Shown here piece by piece: positions 26,308 through 48,954 of a stretch of 64,000 nucleotides of DNA (its first letter is position 1; each line of letters starts with the position of its first letter). The notes below the pieces were generated by a model. That model was not told the DNA's origin. It saw nothing but the letters and a program-made list of their open reading frames with translations, and did no database searches. The stretch is from Escherichia coli (GTDB lineage Bacteria; Pseudomonadota; Gammaproteobacteria; Enterobacterales; Enterobacteriaceae). The position numbers and the translations under genes were made by a program. The stretch lies in assembly GCF_016026235.1 (NCBI RefSeq), contig NZ_CP065613.1. One strand, 5' to 3'.

Positions 26308-26591
26308 GATGATATCTCCGTATTACCCCGCGCCGGGAATGCGCGGCCGCCAATTTTAGTTTAGGTTCCCGGTAAAGATGACATTAAGGAAAACGTGCTG
26401 AATCCTCAATAATCATCCGCTTCTGTTTATTATCTTTTTTCTATAGATTTCTTAATTAATCAATAAATTGCGTAGTTTTTAAGCATATTAATGATTACGT
26501 TGCGGAACTATTGCAATGTCATCAGTTGTGAACAAAGCACCTGGTCGCGCATACTAGGGGCTATAAATTTATCTTTATCAGAAGCCATCAC

Positions 26592-26954: not shown

Positions 26955-27018
26955 GCCCCTCAGACGATTGGTACGATCGTATCAACCCGCATCTGGCTTG
27001 CGTTAGCTGGTCAATGCG

Positions 27019-27028
27019 GGGACTCCCC
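27019..27028. repeat. Target-site duplication, left copy (GGGACTCCCC)
   Basis: Directly repeated at 28323..28332, immediately outside the IS terminal inverted repeats; a 9-bp TSD is expected for IS10-group elements, and the exact boundary is ambiguous by 1 bp. Confidence 0.7.
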
Positions 27029-28322
27029 CTGAGGGATCCCCAGAAAATTTAGTAAACCATTATCATATTGGTATACCGTTGCTGTAGAACTTTCAGCCCT
27101 GCGTCAAGTGACAGTGTGTTTAGTATGAGTGGAGAATGTCGAATCACATTCTCCGCCAGTTTTAATAACGAGATGACTCGCCTGTGCTTCACTGTATTTG
27201 CCTGATATTTATGATGTATCCCTTTGTTTTCCAGGCTGAAACCGCTTAACCACATAATGATACTGGCTAATGTTGCGATCAGACTCAATACCGTGACCCG
27301 CCCGGATGAATGACTGGCACCAAACCGTAGTCCAAATCCCCAGCGAGGATTTTTTTCATCCCTGAAATTTTGCTCAATTTGCATTCTACGGCTGTATAAT
27401 TTCATTACCTGTTTTGGCGAGAACTCAGTACTGTTTGTGAAAATAAACCATGGTGATTTCCCGGCAGTACGAGCTTTAGCCGTCACCGATGGTCTGGTTG
27501 CTCTTTCCTTCGAGCGTTTAAATCTACGACCTTTAGGCTTACTTTTATAAAGATAAAAATGCCCTTCATGTTGTGCATTTTTATCTCGACCCAGCAGGCC
27601 TTCACCTAAATAAATTGCTGTCGTTGATGCTTTTGTGCCTGAGTCCGACACCTTTTCCCAGCCATTACCAACATTGTAATAATGATTGCCCAGTACCCGG
27701 CAAATATAGGTCCAGCCACGGGAGCGGAGCTGTTGGAACCATCGCCCCTGAAAACCGGCATCTGTAATAACAATGACATCAGTCCCGGGGGAAAAGCACT
27801 CAGCAAGCGATTCCAGAAAACGCTCATGTACATCTGCATTCGCTGTCTGTGATGATGGAACGACACAACTCATCAACGGTAAAGAACGCCCGTCACATGC
27901 CAGGCTTGCCCGCAAAAGCTGAAAACGAGAGGCATGATAAGCACTCCAGTCAATGAGTATCACAACACGAGACATTCCCCGCGTAATCTTTTGGGTAATT
28001 CGCTGAAAAATGGTGGAAACCTCATTTTGCAAATGTCGATTCCCCAACAGTCGATCCACCCGCTTTATTTTGTTTTTAACTGATGCCGTACCGGTTAAAT
28101 GACGCCCGATACTGGTAAGTGTGAGGGAAGCGCCATTTATTACAGCATTAGTTGCGTCAATCAGTGATTTTTGACGGTAAAGATGCAAAGGGGCCAGTAT
28201 GTTGTTAAGGAAATTTTGGCATAATGAACGTGCAGGCATAGTGGTGATCTCCTTGAAATTGTTAGCACAATCAATTAGATCACATCTCACTATGCCTGTC
28301 TTGTTTTCTGGGGATTCCTCAG
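27029..28322 (-). mobile_element. IS10-like insertion sequence (IS4 family), apparently intact
   Basis: About 1.29 kb bounded by imperfect terminal inverted repeats (left CTGAGGGATCCCCAGAAAA…, right …TTTTCTGGGGATTCCTCAG) resembling IS10 ends (CTGATGAATCCCC), with a single transposase ORF and flanking direct repeats. Confidence 0.85.
27049..28239 (-). CDS. IS4-family (IS10-group) DDE transposase
   Basis: Protein aligns from MPARSLCQNF… with the IS10 transposase as I recall it (shared LTLT…GR…NKIKR(V/I)DRLLGNRHL, YSRRMQIEQNFRDEK, HKYQANTVKHRRVIS blocks). The start was trimmed to the Met preceded by a GGAG RBS. Confidence 0.85.
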   Translation of the reverse strand: MPARSLCQNFLNNILAPLHLYRQKSLIDATNAVINGASLTLTSIGRHLTGTASVKNKIKRVDRLLGNRHLQNEVSTIFQRITQKITRGMSRVVILIDWSAYHASRFQLLRASLACDGRSLPLMSCVVPSSQTANADVHERFLESLAECFSPGTDVIVITDAGFQGRWFQQLRSRGWTYICRVLGNHYYNVGNGWEKVSDSGTKASTTAIYLGEGLLGRDKNAQHEGHFYLYKSKPKGRRFKRSKERATRPSVTAKARTAGKSPWFIFTNSTEFSPKQVMKLYSRRMQIEQNFRDEKNPRWGFGLRFGASHSSGRVTVLSLIATLASIIMWLSGFSLENKGIHHKYQANTVKHRRVISLLKLAENVIRHSPLILNTLSLDAGLKVLQQRYTNMIMVY

Positions 28323-28332
28323 GGGACTCCCC
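28323..28332. repeat. Target-site duplication, right copy (GGGACTCCCC)
   Basis: See the left copy at 27019..27028. Confidence 0.7.
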
Positions 28333-28801
28333 TGTCTGCTCGCCTAATTACTGAACAATCCACTCCCTCTACATCAATTTACCGCTGGTTGATATTCTGA
28401 AAATGTATTTTCACCGAAATAGCAACCTATAAACAATAAAAATATATAGAAGATATCATTTGTTAATTAACAAGCATTTACGTCTCTTTTTTTCGGATTT
28501 AATTGTGAAATTTTAATCATCATATTCATAAAATCAATTATCCGTAAAAATTTTTCCAGATATGGTTTCTTCCATATTTGACATTTATTAATAATCATCA
28601 TTAGAATCCACGAAAAATAATATATTCATACAAACACAGACATATTTTGAAACGAATGATACATTTTTATGATGAATGCTTAAAACAATATTTAATCGAC
28701 ACCCATCACTGTCATTAATGTAAAGCAACATAGATCACCAATAATACAATGGACAACTCTACCGGCATTGATCGCTGGTCGGAGGCAATAAGGATTTTTA
28801 C

Positions 28802-29485
28802 ATGAACTTGAAGAAGATTTTTTTCAGTGCTGTCACTGTTTCAGTTCTCTGCACATTAACGGGATGTGACTACATTGAAGAAGGCAAGCCAGAAAGTAGT
28901 TTACTGAAACAACAAGAAGAACATAACAATAAAATTGAGCTAATTGAAAAACAACAAGCACAGCTAAAGAGTCAACTGGAAACTATTCAAAAACAACAAA
29001 CTGGCATAATAACCAGTACAAAGACTTTAACTCACGTAATTAAATCCGTTAAAGAACAACAAAACACTTTTATTTTTACCGAGTTTAATCCGGCAAAAAC
29101 GAAGTATTTCATCCTGAACAATGGTTCGGTGGCTTTAGCGGGCCGAGTGTTATCTATTGACGCAACAGAGAATGGCAGTGTTATTCATATTTCACTGGTC
29201 AACTTATTAAGTATACCAATCTCAAACATTGGTTTTAATGCGACATGGGGTGGTGAAAAACCTGTCGATGCCAAAGAGTTTGCCCGGTGGCAACAATTAC
29301 TTTTCAACACATCAATGAAATCCACATTGAAATTATTACCAGGTCAATGGCAAGACATTAATTTGACACTGAAGGGTGTATCGCCGAATAACCTGGGATA
29401 TCTGAAGTTAGCCATCAATATGGAGAATATTCAGTTTGACAACCTTCCCTCTGCTGAAAATCGGCAGAAAAGAAGCAAAAAATAA
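28802..29485 (+). CDS. SadB-like inner-membrane lipoprotein (putative trimeric autotransporter biogenesis helper)
   Basis: 227-aa ORF with a lipoprotein signal peptide and lipobox (…VLCTLTGC), followed by a Q/E/K-rich coiled coil. It sits immediately upstream of the adhesin gene, as sadB does with sadA in Salmonella. The gene is AT-rich. Confidence 0.6.
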   Translation: MNLKKIFFSAVTVSVLCTLTGCDYIEEGKPESSLLKQQEEHNNKIELIEKQQAQLKSQLETIQKQQTGIITSTKTLTHVIKSVKEQQNTFIFTEFNPAKTKYFILNNGSVALAGRVLSIDATENGSVIHISLVNLLSIPISNIGFNATWGGEKPVDAKEFARWQQLLFNTSMKSTLKLLPGQWQDINLTLKGVSPNNLGYLKLAINMENIQFDNLPSAENRQKRSKK

Positions 29486-29528
29486 ATGCAGCTTCTGCGC
29501 TTATATCAAGGAATAGAGAACATCATTA

Positions 29529-32500
29529 ATGAACAAAATATTTAAAGTTATCTGGAACCCTGCGACAGGGAATTATACTGTTACCAGCGAAACGGCAAAA
29601 AGCCGTGGTAAGAAATCTGGTCGCAGTAAGCTGTTAATTTCTGCCCTGGTCGCGGGTGGAATGTTTTCGTCGTTTGGGGCATTGGCGAATGCCGGGAATG
29701 ACAACGGTCAGGGTGTTGATTACGGTAGTGGATCAGCTGGCGACGGCTGGGTTGCTATAGGCAAAGGGGCGAAAGCAAATACTTTTATGAACACCAGTGG
29801 TTCCAGTACTGCTGTGGGTTATGAAGCTATAGCTGAAGGCCAATATAGCTCTGCCATCGGTTCAAAAACCCATGCGATTGGTGGTGCATCAATGGCGTTT
29901 GGGGTTAGTGCAATATCAGAAGGCGATAGAAGTATAGCACTGGGTGCCTCTTCGTATTCATTGGGCCAATACTCAATGGCCCTCGGCCGTTATTCAAAAG
30001 CATTGGGTAAATTGTCTATTGCTATGGGGGACTCTTCCAAAGCGGAAGGAGCAAACGCCATTGCGCTGGGAAATGCCACTAAAGCTACTGAGATTATGAG
30101 TATTGCTCTTGGCAACACCGCCAATGCGTCAAAAGCGTATTCAATGGCGCTGGGAGCAAGTAGCGTCGCATCTGAAGAAAACGCGATTGCCCTGGGGCGT
30201 AGCAGTGCAGCTAATGGTACTGACAGCCTCGCATTAGGCAGACTATCCGTCGCCAGCGCAGCAAACGCCATTACGATAGGTGCTGAGAGCAAAGCCGCTG
30301 AAAATGCGACGGCCGTTGGTACCAAAGCGGAGGCCAATGGACTTAATAGTATCGCGTTGGGCTCTGGGGGTATTGCAGATGCCGATAACACGATTGCTCT
30401 GGGCAATCAAAGCCTGGCAGTAGCTGCTGGTGCAATTGCCATCGGTCAGGGGAATAAAGCTGACGGCGCAAATGCTATCGCGCTGGGTAATGGTAGTGTT
30501 ACAGGTGGCGCAAATGCTATTGCTCTTGGACAAGGTAGTTATGCCGGTTTAGAAAATGGCATTGCAATTGGTGGTCAAGCCAGTGCTCAAGGGACAAATT
30601 CCGTTGCTCTGGGTGCGGGTTCTGTAGCGACTGAAGATAATTCCGTCTCTGTGGGTAACACAACAGATCAGCGAAAAATTGTCAATATGGCAGCAGGTGA
30701 TATCAGCACTAGCAGTACTGATGCCATAAATGGATCACAGCTTTATGCTATCAGTAAGTCAGTAGCGGACCGTCTTGGTGGGGGGGCTACCGTCAATGCG
30801 CAAGGTGTCGTTACTGCCCCGAATTACAGACTGAAAAATGGTATTTATGGCAATGTTGGCGATGCTTTAGCGGATCTAAACAATAACACGATACAATGGG
30901 ACTCCGTTAAAAAGGGATATAGTGCGGCACATGGTACAGATGCCACCAGCACCATCACCAACGTTAAAGCCGGCACTATTTCTGCTACCAGTACGGATGC
31001 GGTTAACGGTTCCCAACTGAAAGCTACCAATGACGATGTCGAAGCCAACACCGCCAATATCGCTACTAATACCAGCAACATTGCCACGAATACGGCAAGT
31101 ATTGCCACCAACACCACCAATATCACCAACCTGACGAATTCCGTTGGTGACCTTAAGGATGATGCCCTGCTGTGGAATGATGCTAAAAATGCATTCAGTG
31201 CAGCTCACGACCAGGATACCACCAGCAAAATCACCAACGTTAAAGATGGCGACCTGACGGCTGGCAGCACCGATGCCGTTAATGGCTCTCAGCTGAAAAC
31301 CACCAACGATGCCGTGGCGACGAATACCACCAATATCGCCACTAACACTTCCAATATTGCCACTAACACTTCCAACATCTCTACCCTGACTGAGACGGTG
31401 ACTAATCTTGGTGAGGATGCGCTGAAATGGGATAAGGACAGTGGTGTCTTCACGGCAGCACACGGCACCGAGGCCACCAGCAAAATCACCAACGTTAAAG
31501 ATGCCGACCTGACGGCTGACAGCACCGATGCCGTTAACGGCTCTCAGCTGAAAACCACCAACGATGCTGTGGCGACGAATACCACCAATATCGCCAATAA
31601 CACCTCCAATATTGCCACTAACACCACCAACATCTCTAACCTGACTGAGACGGTGACTAACCTTGGTGAAGATGCGCTGAAATGGGATAAGGACAATGGT
31701 GTATTCACGGCAGCTCATGGCAACAACGCCACCAGCAAAATCACCAACGTTAAAGATGGCGACCTGACGGCTGGCAGCACCGATGCCGTTAACGGCTCTC
31801 AGCTGAAGACCACCAACGATGCCGTGGCGACGAATACCACCAATATTGCCACTAACACCACCAACATCTCTACCCTGACTGAGACGGTGACTAATCTTGG
31901 TGAGGATGCGCTGAAATGGGATAAGGACAATGGTGTATTCACGGCAGCTCATGGCAACAACACCGCCAGCAAAATCACCAATATCCTGGACGGCACAGTC
32001 ACTGCAACCAGTTCCGATGCCATTAACGGCAGCCAGCTTTATGACTTAAGCAGCAATATCGCCAGCTACTTCGGCGGCAACGCTTCTGTGAATACTGACG
32101 GTGTGTTTACCGGTCCAACCTACAAAATCGGTGAAACAAATTATTATAACGTCGGCGATGCACTGGCTGCGATTAACTCCTCATTTAGCACGTCTCTCGG
32201 CGATGCCCTGCTTTGGGACGCTTCCGTAGATAAATTTAGTGCCAAACACGGTACTAATGGTGACGCAAGCGTGATCACTGATGTCGCAAACGGGGATGTT
32301 TCAAGCACAAGCTCTGATGCTGTGAACGGCTCGCAACTCTATACCACCAATAAGTACGTCGTAGATGCGCTGGGTGGTGGTGCCGAAGTCAATGCTGACG
32401 GCAGCATCAGTGCGCCGACTTACACTATCGCAAACGCAGATTACGATAATGTCGGTGATGCCCTGAATGCTATCGATACCACTCTTGATGACGCTCTGCT

Positions 32501-34625
32501 CTGGGATGCAGACGCCGGTGAAAATGGTGCATTTAGCGCCGCTCACGGAAAAGATAAAACTGCCAGTGTAATCACTAACGTCGCTAACGGTGCAATCTCT
32601 GCTGCCAGCAGCGACGCGATTAACGGCTCACAACTCTATACCACCAATAAGTACATCGCTGATGCGCTGGGTGGTGACGCAGAAGTCAACGCTGACGGCA
32701 CCATCACCGCACCGACTTACACCATTGCGAACGCCGAGTACAACAACGTCGGTGACGCCCTGGATGCGCTTGATGATAACGCCCTGCTGTGGGATGAGAC
32801 TGCCAACGGCGGTGCTGGAGCCTACAATGCCAGCCATGACGGTAAAGCCAGCATCATCACTAATGTCGCTAATGGCAGTATTAGTGAGGACAGCACCGAT
32901 GCAGTGAATGGTTCTCAGTTGAATGCGACGAATTTGATGATTGAGCAGAACAGCCAAATCATCAATCAGCTTGCTGGTAACACCGACACAACCTATATCG
33001 AAGAAAATGGCGCTGGTATCAACTACGTTCGTACTAACGACAACGGTTTAGCCTTTAACGATGCAAGCGCCTCTGGTGTCGGCGCTACAGCTGTAGGTTA
33101 TAACGCTGTCGCGTCTGGTGCCAGCAGCGTAGCCATTGGTCAGAACAGCAGCAGCACCGTTGATACCGGTATTGCGCTGGGTAGCAGCTCCGTTTCCAGC
33201 CGTGTGATTGCCAAAGGTTCTCGTGATACCAGCGTGTCAGAAGAAGGTGTTGTGATTGGTTATGACACCACGGATGGCGAACTGCTCGGTGCATTGTCGA
33301 TTGGTGATGATGGCAAGTACCGTCAAATTATCAACGTAGCCGATGGTTCCGAAGCCCATGACGCCGTTACGGTTCGCCAGTTGCAGAACGCTATTGGAGC
33401 GGTCGCCACTACGCCAACCAAGTACTATCACGCCAACTCAACGGCAGAAGACTCACTGGCCGTTGGTGAAGACTCGCTGGCAATGGGTGCGAAAACTGTC
33501 GTTAATGGTAATGCAGGTATTGGTATCGGTTTGAACACTCTGGTTCTGGCTGATGCGATCAACGGTATTGCTATCGGCAGTAACGCACGCGCAAACCATG
33601 CAAACAGTATTGCAATGGGTAACGGTTCTCAGACCACCCGTGGTGCACAGACTGGCTACACCGCCTACAACATGGACGCACCGCAGAACTCTGTAGGTGA
33701 GTTTTCTGTCGGTAGTGAAGACGGTCAACGCCAGATCACCAACGTCGCAGCTGGTTCAGCGGATACCGATGCGGTTAACGTGGGTCAGTTGAAAGTCACT
33801 GATGAGCGCGTAGCGCAAAATACCCAGAGCATTACTAACCTGAACAATCAGGTCACTAATCTGGATACTCGCGTTACTAATATCGAAAACGGTATTGGCG
33901 ATATCGTGACCACCGGTAGCACCAAGTACTTCAAGACCAACACCGATGGCGTAGATGCCAACGCCCAGGGTAAAGATAGCGTTGCGATTGGTTCTGGTTC
34001 CATTGCTGCCGCTGACAACAGCGTCGCTCTGGGTACAGGCTCCGTGGCCAACGAAGAAAACACGATCTCTGTGGGTTCTTCTACCAACCAGCGCCGTATC
34101 ACCAACGTAGCTGCCGGTGTTAATGCCACCGATGCGGTTAACGTGTCGCAGCTGAAATCTTCTGAAGCAGGCGGCGTTCGCTACGACACCAAAGCGGATG
34201 GCTCTATCGACTACAGCAACATCACTCTCGGTGGTGGCAACGGAGGTACGACTCGCATCAGCAACGTTTCCGCAGGTGTGAACAACAACGACGCGGTGAA
34301 CTACGCGCAGTTGAAGCAAAGCGTGCAGGAAACAAAGCAATACACCGATCAGCGCATGGTTGAGATGGATAACAAACTGTCTAAAACTGAAAGCAAGTTG
34401 AGCGGTGGTATCGCTTCTGCAATGGCAATGACCGGTCTGCCGCAGGCTTACACTCCAGGTGCCAGCATGGCTTCTATTGGTGGCGGTACTTACAACGGTG
34501 AATCGGCAGTTGCTTTAGGTGTATCGATGGTGAGCGCCAATGGTCGTTGGGTCTACAAATTACAAGGTAGTACCAATAGCCAGGGTGAATACTCCGCCGC
34601 ACTCGGTGCCGGTATTCAGTGGTAA
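29529..34625 (+). CDS. ehaG: Trimeric autotransporter adhesin (YadA-like head, repetitive stalk, C-terminal YadA anchor); EhaG/UpaG-like
   Basis: 1698-aa ORF with the extended TAA signal peptide ([18 protein letters not shown]…), a head of repeated GxxAxAxG/SIALG motifs, neck motifs (NSVSVG…[10 protein letters not shown]…DAVNVSQL), DALLWD…FSAAHG stalk repeats and a C-terminal anchor ending …AALGAGIQW. The symbol is assigned by locus position between yibL and lldP; upaG is equally possible. Confidence 0.85.
30890..32040 (+). repeat. Tandem 240-252-bp coding repeats inside the adhesin stalk (about five near-identical copies)
   Basis: Unit …[17 protein letters not shown]…[42 protein letters not shown]… recurs with unit starts at about 30893, 31160, 31417, 31669 and 31909; degenerate copies continue to about 32800. 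Confidence 0.85.
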
Positions 34626-34654
34626 TGATCCATTAAGTTAGTGTGACTAAGGGC

Positions 34655-34760
34655 AAACGCCAAATTGCCTGATGCGCTACGCTTATCAGGCCTACAGGGT
34701 GATTCTGCACATTCCTATAGGCCGGGTAAGGTGTTCACGCCGCATCTGGCAAGATAAGGC
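34655..34760. repeat. REP/BIME palindromic units
   Basis: TTGCCTGATGCGCTACGCTTATCAGGCCTACAGG … TAGGCCGGGTAAGGTGTTCACGCCGCATCTGGC downstream of the adhesin gene. Confidence 0.8.
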
Positions 34761-45709: not shown

Positions 45710-46669
45710 TTGTTTCCATTTCGTCGTAACGTTCTTGCATTTGCCGCTCTGTTGGCGCTCTCCTCCCCCGTACTTGCTGGCAAACTTGCCATCGTCATTG
45801 ATGATTTTGGGTATCGCCCGCACAACGAAAACCAGGTGCTGGCGATGCCTTCCGCTATCTCCGTCGCTGTATTACCCGATTCACCGCACGCCAGAGAGAT
45901 GGCGACCAAAGCGCATAACAGCGGTCACGAAGTGTTGATTCATCTCCCGATGGCACCGTTGAGTAAACAGCCGCTGGAGAAAAATACGCTACGCCCGGAG
46001 ATGAGCAGCGACGAAATTGAGCGCATTATTCGTAGTGCGGTCAATAACGTGCCCTATGCCGTGGGGATCAACAACCACATGGGCAGCAAGATGACCTCTA
46101 ACCTGTTTGGTATGCAGAAAGTGATGCAGGCGCTGGAGCGTTACAATCTTTACTTCCTCGACAGCGTAACCATTGGTAATACCCAGGCGATGCGCGCCGC
46201 GCAAGGCACTGGCGTGAAGGTTATTAAACGGAAGGTGTTCCTCGACGATTCACAGAACGAAGCGGACATCCGTGTGCAGTTCAATCGCGCAATTGATCTG
46301 GCGCGTCGCAACGGTTCAACCATTGCCATTGGGCATCCTCACCCTTCAACGGTACGCGTGCTACAACAGATGGTTTATAACCTGCCGCCAGACATTACGC
46401 TGGTGAAAGCCAGCAGCCTGCTGAATGAACCGCAGGTTGATACGTCTACACAGCCGAAAAACACTGTGCCCGACACACCGCGTAATCCGTTCCGTGGCGT
46501 GAAGCTGTGCAAACCGAAGAAACCGATAGAACCTGTTTATGCTAATCGCTTCTTTGAAGTATTAAGCGAAAGTATCAGCCAGAGCACGCTGATCGTTTAC
46601 TTCCAGCATCAGTGGCAAGGCTGGGGCAAACAGCCCGAAGCGGCGAAACTTAACGCTAGCGCAAATTAA
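45710..46669 (+). CDS. yibQ: Divergent polysaccharide deacetylase family protein
   Basis: 319-aa ORF with a signal peptide; position after envC matches yibQ. Confidence 0.8.
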   Translation: MFPFRRNVLAFAALLALSSPVLAGKLAIVIDDFGYRPHNENQVLAMPSAISVAVLPDSPHAREMATKAHNSGHEVLIHLPMAPLSKQPLEKNTLRPEMSSDEIERIIRSAVNNVPYAVGINNHMGSKMTSNLFGMQKVMQALERYNLYFLDSVTIGNTQAMRAAQGTGVKVIKRKVFLDDSQNEADIRVQFNRAIDLARRNGSTIAIGHPHPSTVRVLQQMVYNLPPDITLVKASSLLNEPQVDTSTQPKNTVPDTPRNPFRGVKLCKPKKPIEPVYANRFFEVLSESISQSTLIVYFQHQWQGWGKQPEAAKLNASAN

Positions 46670-47690
46670 AGGCGCTACGCGTAATGCGATGGTGCGACCG
46701 CGTTTTGTCGCGCCATTGCCATAAGCGGAAAGACCACAGTAACGCCTGGTAACCCACCTTCACGCTGCGCACATTGGTAATCAGGCGCTTATACATACCG
46801 GAAGTAAATATCTCGGCAATCATCCGTTGGCGGGTAAGAATATCCGGCTCTTTGCGCACCGCATGGCAAACACGCAATGCTTCGTAAGTTATTTGCTGAT
46901 GAAATTCCGGATAAATCGTAATTTTGTCGGCATAATTTCGATTTAATTTCTCCAGCAGGCGGGTAATCTTAATATAGTGACGTTGATAATTAAGGTTTTT
47001 ATTCCCTTGTCTATGCAACCGACTCACTGACGTATTATGCAGATAATATTTATATAATGATTGCTCGGTATATCGCGCACGCAGCGCATTAAACATGAAT
47101 TCTGTTGTCCAGACAATATCCTGATGATGTAATCCGGCAATAAATTTAATGTTATTTTTAACAATAACATCGCGGCGATAAACCCCCATCCAGACAACGT
47201 GAGTCCAACGGCGCGAAGAAAGCCCCATCCGCAGCCAGTCCGGGCCGGTTAATACACCGGTTGAGCGAAGGCGATCGCTGGGGATGGATTGCCAGGTTTC
47301 TCCCGTTTCACGAAAACACCAGTCAGCGTTGCACTGCGCCACGTCGAGGTCGTCCTCTAACGCCATGGTCATCAGCGTTTCGTACATGGTGGGATAGACT
47401 TCATCGTCAGCATCGACAAAAGCGACATATTTGTCCGTTGCCACTTCAATCCCACGATTACGCGCCACCGATGCGCCAGCATTCGCCTGATGCAACAAAC
47501 GAACGTGCGGATAGTTTTCTGCGTAATGCTTTGCTATTTCAACAGAATTATCCGTTGAACCATCGTTAATAATAATGATTTCCAGAGCAGTCCAGGTTTG
47601 CGTAATTAAAGATTCCATACAAGTGCGGAAATCATCGCCCGCATTATATAACGGAATAATAACACTAAGTTTATTGGTGCTGTTCATCAT
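46656..47690 (-). CDS. waaH: GT2-family LPS core glucuronosyltransferase
   Basis: 344-aa ORF with the N-terminal GT2 signature (LSVIIPLYNAGDDF…IIINDGSTDNS); position matches waaH (yibD); 14-bp convergent overlap with yibQ. Confidence 0.8.
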   Translation of the reverse strand: MMNSTNKLSVIIPLYNAGDDFRTCMESLITQTWTALEIIIINDGSTDNSVEIAKHYAENYPHVRLLHQANAGASVARNRGIEVATDKYVAFVDADDEVYPTMYETLMTMALEDDLDVAQCNADWCFRETGETWQSIPSDRLRSTGVLTGPDWLRMGLSSRRWTHVVWMGVYRRDVIVKNNIKFIAGLHHQDIVWTTEFMFNALRARYTEQSLYKYYLHNTSVSRLHRQGNKNLNYQRHYIKITRLLEKLNRNYADKITIYPEFHQQITYEALRVCHAVRKEPDILTRQRMIAEIFTSGMYKRLITNVRSVKVGYQALLWSFRLWQWRDKTRSHHRITRSAFNLR

Positions 47691-47900
47691 AAATTACCGA
47701 CGACCTCTGAAGTTATCCTGACGTTTTACAGGCTTTGTATTAAGAAACTATTAAGCCTGTGAGATATTCTTTTTACAGGTGAGAGAGTCACTTCAGGGTA
47801 GAGAGATAATGAGAGCAGCTATATAAGAGATCAGCACAATTACGAACTCTTTATTACACTGACAGGATTTTACATATTTAACAGATTATCCTCAGATAAA

Positions 47901-47920
47901 AGGGCTGGAATACCAGCCCT
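47901..47920 (-). terminator. Candidate terminator downstream of tdh
   Basis: Hairpin AGGGCTGG-AATA-CCAGCCCT immediately after the tdh stop; a T-rich tract follows on the minus strand. Confidence 0.5.
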
Positions 47921-47928
47921 TGTTCGTG

Positions 47929-48954
47929 TTAATCCCAGCTCAGAATAACTTTCCCAGACTGGCCCGAACGCATAGCGTCAAAGCCCTTCTGGAAATCATC
48001 GATAGAGAAACGATGGGTAATGATCGGCGAGAGATCGAGGCCAGACTGAATCAGCGCCGCCATCTTGTACCAGGTTTCAAACATCTCACGACCGTAAATG
48101 CCTTTAATGAACAAGCCCTTAAAGATCACTTTTGTCCAGTCTATCGACATGTCAGAAGGTGGAATACCCAGCATCGCAATACGACCGCCGTGGTTCATGG
48201 TGTCGAGCATGGTACGAAACGCTGGCGGCGCACCGGACATTTCCAGACCGACATCAAAGCCTTCGGTCATGCCCAGTTCTGCCATCACATCATTAAGGTT
48301 TTCTTTAGCGACGTTGACCGCACGGGTGATACCCATTTTGCGCGCCAGCTCAAGGCGGTATTCGTTAACATCGGTGATCACCACATTGCGTGCACCAACG
48401 TGTTTCGCCACCGCCGCAGCCATAATACCTATCGGACCTGCACCAGAAACCAGCACATCTTCGCCCACCAGATCGAACGACAGCGCGGTATGCACGGCGT
48501 TACCGAAGGGATCAAAAATGGAAGCCAGGTCGTCGGAGATATTGTCGGGGATTTTGAAAGCGTTGAACGCCGGAATCACCAGATATTCGGCGAAGCAGCC
48601 CGGACGGTTAACACCGACACCAATGGTGTTGCGGCACAGATGGGTACGACCGCCACGACAGTTGCGACAGTGACCGCAGGTGATATGGCCTTCGCCAGAA
48701 ACGCGATCGCCGATTTTGAAGCCTTTCACTTCCTGACCAATACCTACCACTTCACCGACATATTCATGGCCTACGACCATCGGCACCGGGATGGTTTTTT
48801 GCGACCACTCATCCCAGTTATAGATGTGAACGTCAGTCCCGCAGATGGCTGTTTTACGGATTTTAATCAGCAGATCGTTATGCCCGAGTTCCGGTACAGG
48901 AACGTCGGTCATCCAGATGCCCTCTTCCGCTTTCAGTTTGGATAACGCTTTCAT
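47929..48954 (-). CDS. tdh: L-threonine 3-dehydrogenase
   Basis: 341-aa ORF starting [32 protein letters not shown]… (zinc-ADH family), matching Tdh. Confidence 0.93.

Follow-up and report, generated by a model that had tools for sequence, protein, structure and literature searches.

The waaH (yibD) promoter of Escherichia coli: a repeated 9-mer, the PmrA/BasR box and possible routes of PhoB control

The gene waaH, formerly yibD, encodes UDP-glucuronate:LPS(HepIII) glycosyltransferase (RefSeq annotation) and responds to phosphate limitation. Which elements of its upstream region carry this response, and does PhoB act on them directly or through another factor? We addressed this question in a 64-kb stretch of E. 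coli DNA (referred to as the window; all positions are those of this stretch). A previous sequence-only reading of the window had taken the spacer upstream of waaH for the control region of this gene, had noted that waaH is reported to be induced through PhoB at low phosphate, and had flagged two copies of a short repeat as weak candidates for Pho-box half-sites.

The spacer (47691-47928) is the whole 238-bp tdh-waaH (yibD) intergenic region, with both genes on the minus strand. The following features delimit it:

46656-47690, minus strand: waaH (yibD) coding sequence, 344 aa (open reading frame list and RefSeq annotation of the matching stretch).
47691-47716, minus strand: predicted leader of 26 nt with the start at A47716, positioned from the -10 hexamer at 47728-47723.
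47893-47921, minus strand: intrinsic terminator of tdh, a 9-bp G+C-rich stem with a 4-nt loop (47921-47900), then UUUUAUCU.
47929, minus strand: tdh stop codon (open reading frame list).

Bases 47600-48000 were matched in 5423 of 5426 complete E. coli genomes, where the RefSeq labels are waaH and tdh, and K-12 is 99.5% identical to the window across 401 bases around the spacer. Annotation and identity together bear out the assignment of this region to the control of waaH. What the spacer contains is the waaH (yibD) promoter, which has been characterised before; it is the known system itself and not a relative of one (Baek & Lee 2006; Yoshida 2011; Marchal 2004; Tamayo 2005; Guckes 2017). The spacer is AT-rich (38% G+C), and five diverse E. 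coli strains do not differ in its proximal 90 bp. A natural variant is found at 47769, where the plus strand has C here and A in K-12 (T-to-G on the waaH strand); it is shared with strain Res13-Sevr-PER07-33. The predicted 26-nt leader is unstructured according to RNA folding, and GGTAA directly before the waaH ATG is conserved. At the other end of the spacer, the tdh terminator (-16.6 kcal/mol, z -4.25 for the RNA fold of the minus strand) combines a G+C-rich hairpin and a U tract straight after the stop codon, as is typical of intrinsic terminators.

The PhoB-dependent induction of waaH at low phosphate agrees with published microarrays and RNA-seq, which are consistent on this point. The gene was 46-fold up in a pst mutant of APEC and 81-fold up at low phosphate in strain EDL933 (15-fold relative to the phoB mutant), and it was induced in a pstCA mutant of Citrobacter rodentium. 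RNA-seq of a K-12 phoB mutant revealed a decrease from ~12,700 to ~3,000 normalised waaH reads (log2 2.1, q = 1.6e-22), i.e., about a quarter of the expression persists without PhoB; eptA, basR, eptC and qseB were unchanged in this mutant. The promoter (yibDp) is widely used as a phosphate-depletion autoinduction part. As to binding, a PhoB footprint with binding sites in the yibD promoter (Yoshida et al. 2011) and a dose-dependent PhoB gel shift on the waaH promoter (Vogeleer et al. 2019) are reported, whereas a PhoB signal upstream of waaH was absent both in ChIP-chip (Yang 2012) and in ChIP-seq (Fitzgerald 2023). In the latter study the regulation of waaH was judged to be indirect, with the reservation that tagged PhoB might miss low-affinity sites; the FLAG-tagged PhoB used there was partly active (pstS expression 8-fold lower).

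Furthermore, the promoter belongs to the PmrA regulon. The UPEC yibD promoter carries a PmrA consensus and is gel-shifted by PmrA~P and, more weakly, by QseB~P, and the ferric-iron induction of yibD is lost in a UPEC pmrA mutant. Salmonella yibD is activated by PmrA and PreA(QseB), and the published PmrA motif consensus was derived from PmrA-regulated genes including yibD.

The repeated 9-mer and the conserved core

The sequence TTTTACAGG is found at two places in the window and no others: 47724-47732 and 47771-47779, both on the plus strand. On the waaH strand the two copies are:

47724-47732, minus strand: proximal copy of CCTGTAAAA, consisting of the first five bases of the -10 hexamer and the four bases upstream of them.
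47771-47779, minus strand: distal copy of CCTGTAAAA, containing TGTAAAA (47777-47771), a moderate PhoB-type half-site.

Both copies and the coordinate of the first one (47724) had been recognised correctly. The second copy exists as well, but 11 bp from the position of about 47782 given for it, and the two are separated by 47 bp rather than by about 60 bp. A spacing of 47 bp (4 x 11 + 3) puts the copies out of helical phase with each other.

Measured against the whole 64 kb, the repeat is mildly unusual (0.43 copies of TTTTACAGG expected; at least two copies in 7 of 100 shuffles). The relevant null is, however, the AT-rich spacer itself. Of 2000 dinucleotide shuffles of the 238-bp spacer, 272 (13.6%) contained a perfect direct repeat of 9 nt or longer, and the TTTTACAGG repeat is therefore not beyond chance; the identity of the two 9-mers is coincidental. 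In a divergent Escherichia (L001) both copies are altered (CTCGTAAAA and TCTGTACAA). In other genera the proximal copy retains only GTAnAA, and the distal copy is found as xGTAAAA in a few close relatives. As a pair, the copies are not conserved, even within Escherichia.

We examined 54 loci encoding WaaH relatives (one genome per species), and for 17 loci from ~12 enterobacterial genera we aligned the stretch of 260 nt that precedes the start codon. The conserved element, present in 15 of the 17 aligned regions, is CTTAAT-N5-CTTAAT followed after 10 nt by TAAAAC, and it comprises two features:

47739-47755, minus strand: PmrA/BasR box CTTAATAGTTTCTTAAT, a direct repeat (period 11 bp) that spans -39 to -23 relative to the predicted start.
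47723-47728, minus strand: -10 hexamer TAAAAC (consensus TAnAAn across genera; TATAAA in Salmonella).

The pattern YTTAAK-N5-YTTAAK has a single match in the 64 kb (0.16 expected), and this match lies at 47755-47739 on the waaH strand. Among the 22 closest orthologous loci, 18 have the exact box pattern at -65 to -71 from the ATG; the other four contain near matches or were not resolved (one mismatch in C. sedlakii, a degenerate box in Silvania). The near-invariant columns of the gapless alignment of the 17 promoters are confined to CTTAA, to TT.A of the second repeat and to T, A, A and A of the hexamer, and the cross-genus form of the proximal block reads CTTAAT-nnnTT-CTTAAT, 10 nt, TAnAAn. 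The hexamer columns (T42, A43, A45, A46) are at least 90% conserved in these promoters and stand at a fixed distance of 10 nt from the box. In its repeat pattern, its placement over the -35 region and its conservation in orthologous promoters the element corresponds to a PmrA/BasR box. The conserved control element is thus the PmrA/BasR box with its -10, and not the repeats. The earlier flag had directed interest to the 9-mers and had missed the dominant conserved element between them. The proximal copy, seen in its context, is part of the conserved -10 and neither an activator site nor a Pho half-site; it is shifted by 3 bp from the helical phase of the box (phase 3).

The distant waaH homologues of the Citrobacter freundii group, Pantoea and Rahnella (52-67% identity) were left out of this footprinting, and their upstream regions revealed neither a PmrA box nor a Pho box. 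A sigma-70 consensus scan of 47500-48100 returned no promoter, as expected for a promoter without a -35, and is uninformative for an activator-dependent one.

The box is also enclosed by an inverted repeat:

47728-47760, minus strand: inverted repeat ACAGGCTT / AAGCCTGT around the box (arms 47753-47760 and 47728-47735).

If transcribed, its 8-bp arms would fold with -10 kcal/mol (z -3.9). Palindromes with different letters surround the box in C. amalonaticus, C. sedlakii, Leclercia and Salmonella. Over the 17 sequences, 58% of the cells were paired compared with 49% in shuffled and 35-47% in slid alignments, i.e., the covariation is weak and lineage-restricted. With 58% against 49% being too weak, the palindrome was dropped as a candidate conserved structure. 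An Rfam scan at E <= 1 matched nothing.

PhoB matrix matches and the distal block

The spacer was scanned with two PhoB matrices. The ChIP matrix holds log-odds from 59 18-mers in the PhoB ChIP-seq peaks of Fitzgerald et al. 2023 (training sites: minimum 6.5 bits, median 14.9), and the classic matrix was built from the 12 Pho boxes tabulated by Chekabab et al. 2014 (training minimum 13.5 bits). The 18-mers concerned, and the conserved block in which one of them lies, are:

47755-47738, minus strand: best ChIP-matrix 18-mer in the spacer, CTTAATAGTTTCTTAATA, 6.7-6.8 bits; it is the PmrA/BasR box itself.
Starting at 47777, minus strand: 18-mer from the distal copy, 3.4-3.6 bits (ChIP matrix).
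Starting at 47730, minus strand: 18-mer from the proximal copy, -8.6 bits (ChIP matrix).
47884-47867, minus strand: best classic-matrix 18-mer, CTGTTAAATATGTAAAAT, 8.1 bits, under the training minimum of 13.5.
47825-47884, minus strand: distal conserved block with a cluster of TGTNA motifs, conserved in ~10 genera.

Neither matrix found a canonical Pho box in the spacer. ChIP-matrix matches of at least 6.65 bits number 62 in the 64-kb window; because they arise about once per kb, the best match in the spacer is not significant alone. In K-12, two adjacent 18-mers of the array score 6.2 and 6.8 bits, which is the floor of the ChIP-verified sites, and the variant at 47769 lowers the upstream one from 6.2 bits (K-12) to 3.6 bits here. 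Note that the PhoB ChIP site at yibT/yibL of K-12 carries three substitutions in this strain and is therefore unusable as a positive control within the window.

The scan, which had been proposed together with the repeats as candidate Pho-box half-sites, speaks against them, as the 18-mers of the two copies (3.6 and -8.6 bits) both fall below the minimum of 6.5 bits. The spacing is not that of a Pho box either, in which two 7-bp direct repeats close to CTGTCAT flank an A/T-rich spacer of 4 bp (period 11 bp): the copies are 47 bp apart and have no partner half-site 11 bp away, the would-be partner of the distal copy, TATCTCA, having -2.5 bits as a half-site. As to position, a Pho box takes the place of the -35 and ends about 9-10 nt ahead of the -10, whereas the proximal copy coincides with the -10 and the distal one lies at -61 to -55 from the predicted start. 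The repeats are thus no Pho box in spacing, score or position, and the CTTAAT array, going by the predicted start, would have only the positional feature of one (18-mer, 9 nt, TAAAAC).

The TGTAAAA of the distal copy deserves separate consideration. It is located exactly 22 bp, i.e., two helical turns, upstream of the CTTAAT box, and with the half-site matrix it scores 6.0 bits in phase 0 relative to the box (training median 7.6). Its surroundings are much less conserved than the proximal block. Averaged over the orthologues, the half-site score peaks only once, at offset -22. The motif at this offset, xGTAAAA or TTTAAAA, is carried by Escherichia, C. sedlakii, Silvania and one of two C. amalonaticus loci, whereas Salmonella, Leclercia, Enterobacter, Cedecea and others lack it.

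The distal block reads TGTCAT-TGTCATAAAtAnTTCGTAATTG...TCTTAT in other genera. It contains five TGTNA motifs in 45 bp, spaced by 9, 10, 6 and 14 bp and never by 11. The summit of an NsrR ChIP-seq peak in strain CFT073 lies 191 bp upstream of the waaH ATG (~47881), and NsrR ChIP-chip in K-12 was positive as well; the motif scan made by the authors of the ChIP-seq study lists none for the waaH peak. In the 'modified yibDp', a part from the Lynch lab that corresponds to 47709-47844, most of the distal block was deleted as an NsrR site. This part is devoid of 47845-47884, including all TGTNA motifs upstream of CGTAAT, and is still tightly and strongly induced at low phosphate. Since the truncated promoter stays regulated, the distal block is dispensable for low-phosphate induction. 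Furthermore, because the part retains native sequence down to 47709, transcription has to start upstream of this position.

Direct or indirect action of PhoB

We lean, by a small degree, towards a direct, low-affinity action of PhoB on the phased array of the waaH promoter. The core of waaH is a sigma-70 promoter without a -35 that depends on response regulators, with the direct repeat CTTAAT-N5-CTTAAT (47755-47739) placed 10 nt upstream of the weak -10 TAAAAC (47728-47723); transcription should begin near A47716 and yield a leader of 26 nt. As established by others, PmrA/BasR, assisted by QseB, activates this promoter on ferric iron, NsrR occupies the distal block, and PhoB is needed for low-phosphate induction, for which ~135 bp (about 47709-47844) are enough. 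In the model, PhoB~P may bind cooperatively and weakly to the array TGTAAAA-N4-TATCTCA-N4-CTTAATA-N4-CTTAATA (47777-47738). The proximal 9-mer represents the -10 and its flank, and the distal 9-mer supplies TGTAAAA two turns above the box. Indeed, the half-site-like 7-mers at 47777, 47755 and 47744 share one 11-bp phase. An array score at the bottom of the verified PhoB range would explain why PhoB is detected in vitro by footprint and gel shift without a ChIP signal.

Several observations count against the direct model. All promoter matrix scores are marginal, and the second unit of the array (TATCTCA, -2.5 bits) is poor. Besides, there are the two negative ChIP studies and the quarter of expression that remains without PhoB, and the start is a predicted one only.

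The main alternative, to which we give a clearly smaller though still appreciable chance, is that PhoB controls waaH only indirectly. PhoB would then never bind the spacer; a PhoB-dependent factor or physiological change would act on the promoter, perhaps via the PmrA/BasR box, and the 9-mers would have no role beyond the -10. This is the conclusion as published, and it accords with the negative ChIP-chip and ChIP-seq, with the lack of a canonical Pho box by both matrices, with the substantial PhoB-independent expression of waaH and with a promoter clearly built for another regulator. However, the obvious intermediaries (eptA, basR, eptC, qseB) are not PhoB-dependent, a PhoB footprint and gel shift on this promoter are reported in the papers cited above, the box stands in the exact geometry of a Pho box with an in-phase TGTAAAA 22 bp upstream, and the tagged PhoB of the ChIP-seq study was partly defective. 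Since eptA, basR and qseB keep their expression when phoB is mutated, general BasR/QseB activity does not account for the PhoB effect. A route via BasR or QseB was considered as a simple explanation and rejected as unlikely, given that none of eptA, basR, eptC and qseB responded to the mutation.

An improbable alternative is that the distal block (CTGTTAAATATGTAAAAT with the TGTCAG / TGTAAT motifs, 47884-47838) houses the functional Pho box and drives a promoter with a long leader. The block does hold the top match of the classic 12-site matrix in the spacer (8.1 bits) besides its five TGTNA motifs in 45 bp, and TGTCAT-TGTCATAAA is kept in ~10 genera, with scores that reach 11.9 bits for one locus of C. 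amalonaticus. Nevertheless, 8.1 bits is under the training minimum of 13.5, the motif spacings do not include 11 bp, a usable -10 is missing 9-10 nt downstream, the NsrR ChIP summit maps to this block, and yibDp truncated by 47845-47884 remains strongly and tightly inducible.

We consider it very improbable that the two CCTGTAAAA copies, flagged as half-site-like in the sequence-only reading, are paired Pho-box half-sites that jointly recruit PhoB. CTGTAAA agrees with CTGTCAT at 5 of 7 positions, each TGTAAAA alone scores 6.0 bits, and waaH is PhoB-dependent; but the 47-bp spacing is out of phase (4 x 11 + 3), the 18-mers reach no more than 3.6 and -8.6 bits, the proximal copy coincides with the conserved -10, and a repeat of this length is reached in 13.6% of the shuffles and as such is not conserved even within Escherichia. 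Hardly any credence can be given to a role at the RNA level, in which both CCUGU copies would pair with the central ACAGG (47760-47756) and form alternative hairpins in a long leader: the 8-bp inverted repeat ACAGGCTT / AAGCCTGT (-10 kcal/mol, z -3.9) and some covariation among Escherichia, Citrobacter, Leclercia and Salmonella are in its favour, but the distal pairing amounts to just 5 bp and lacks conservation, the structure precedes the conserved -10 and would hence be absent from the main transcript, 58% of the cells are paired against 49% after shuffling, and Rfam gave no match.

The direct, low-affinity action of PhoB can be extended to a broader proposal, which we put forward tentatively and would sooner doubt than accept: one 11-bp-phased array at waaH may serve PmrA/BasR, QseB and PhoB, all of the OmpR family, and Escherichia, C. 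amalonaticus, C. sedlakii and Silvania may have gained PhoB through an in-phase TGTAAAA 22 bp upstream of an ancestral PmrA box. If true, such a three-regulator array would reconcile the footprint-positive and ChIP-negative record, and membership in a regulon could evolve by the addition of one half-site beside the box of another regulator.

Nothing here is new in kind: the waaH promoter already counts as a textbook example of control by phosphate starvation, and it is known both as a target of PmrA and as a commercial-style part for autoinduction. What is added is a corrected map of its elements, with the PmrA/BasR box and the -10 in place of the repeats, and the restriction of the PhoB-like half-site at -22 to some lineages. 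The analysis also offers a testable architecture for the disagreement in the literature on whether PhoB acts at waaH directly (footprint, gel shift) or indirectly (ChIP-negative). The array at 47738-47777, the half-site at -22 and the variant at 47769 are the specific positions that bear on direct versus indirect PhoB control.

Relation to known promoters

The promoter in the window is the same locus as the published yibD promoter of K-12, UPEC and Salmonella, and it differs from that of K-12 by the variant at 47769. Its core resembles other PmrA-dependent promoters of K-12. The arnB (pmrH) promoter consists of CTTAAGGTTAAGTTAAT, 10 nt and TAAAAT, so that the spacing is identical to that in waaH and the -10 nearly so, and the box of eptA (pmrC), CTTAAGGTTGGCTTAAT, is likewise a YTTAAK direct repeat with an 11-bp period. 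In contrast to eptA, which together with basR is unchanged in a phoB mutant, waaH responds strongly to PhoB, and unlike the arnB and eptA promoters it carries, 22 bp upstream of its box, a TGTAAAA that is in phase with it.

The promoters of the Pho regulon (pstS, phoA, phoB, ugpB) share with waaH the lack of a -35 and an 11-bp-phased direct repeat that ends 9 nt before the -10. Thus, phoA has TGTCATAAAGTTGTCACG, 9 nt and TATAGT, and waaH has CTTAATAGTTTCTTAATA, 9 nt and TAAAAC; phoB shows the same geometry with TTTCATAAATCTGTCATA, 9 nt and CATAAT. What sets waaH apart from canonical Pho boxes is its half-sites (CTTAAT instead of TGTCAT), its score (6.8 bits compared with a median of 14.9) and its ChIP-negative record. 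Even so, the pstS3 entry of the classic 12-site matrix, CTTACATATAACTGTCAC, opens with a CTTACAT unit that resembles the CTTAATA of waaH.

Range of the PmrA-box promoter and the inverted repeat at the box

Upstream of the more distant WaaH homologues of the Citrobacter freundii group, Kluyvera, Pantoea and Rahnella (52-67% identity; compared loci L017-L026 and L031-L048), the PmrA box is absent and there is no good match to the PhoB matrix. The PmrA-box promoter is therefore restricted to the closest orthologous loci (>=73% identity), which belong to about 12 genera around Escherichia. The box itself is flanked on both sides by an inverted repeat:

47728-47735 and 47753-47760, arms of an 8-bp inverted repeat (ACAGGCTT / AAGCCTGT) flanking the PmrA/BasR box

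If transcribed, this repeat would fold with -10 kcal/mol. Sequence comparison showed that the palindrome is retained with other letters in several relatives, e.g., as CAGCCTT/AAGGCTG in C. sedlakii and one C. amalonaticus locus, or as GTGGCT/AGCCAC, offset by 2 nt, in Salmonella. Across the relatives, the pairing of the arms (58% paired vs 49% in shuffled sequences) lends the repeat weak overall support.

Natural variation at waaH and at the yibT/yibL PhoB site

E. coli strain 06_3235 (L060) carries a 12-bp tandem duplication, TGTAAAAATAAT, which aligns to window positions ~47766-47777, exactly at the distal copy, and adds one more TGTAAAA half-site about one helical turn off. This natural variant could be altered in its PhoB responsiveness. 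A further difference concerns position 47769, which is C on the plus strand (G on the waaH strand) in the window and in strain Res13-Sevr-PER07-33, and A/T in K-12 and in four further strains. With the window's base, the upstream 18-mer (the PhoB-like sequence starting at 47777) scores 3.6 instead of 6.2 bits with the PhoB matrix. The annotation of E. coli O157:H7 strain Z1830 (L058) lists waaH as a pseudogene with a frameshift, and this may be connected with a remark in the literature that the addition of glucuronic acid in O157 LPS is not associated with WaaH.

A PhoB site known from K-12 ChIP-seq corresponds to a second region of the window:

26498-26515, minus strand, PhoB site in the yibT/yibL interval (K-12, TGTAATAGTTCTGTAACG; window, TGCAATAGTTCCGCAACG)

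Three T-to-C changes in the window affect conserved TGT positions in both half-sites. The 1 kb around the site is 97.3% identical to K-12; this transcriptionally inert site has probably been lost from the window's strain. Immediately downstream of yibL, the window contains ~7.7 kb of extra DNA (~26955-34692) compared with K-12 MG1655, in which positions 1029 and 1040 of the compared stretch (L061) correspond to window positions 26955 and 34692.

Distal conserved block

Another conserved element lies farther upstream of waaH:

47825-47884, minus strand, distal block conserved in ~10 genera (gTAAA-N5-TGTCAt-TGTCATAAAtAnTTCGTAATTG...TCTTAT)

The ChIP summit reported for NsrR, which lies 191 bp before the waaH ATG, falls within this block; the authors of that study gave no NsrR motif for the peak. 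The half-sites of the block are spaced by 9/10/6/14 bp, which does not fit PhoB. The GTAAA-N5-GTCAT spacing is reminiscent of a CpxR-type repeat.
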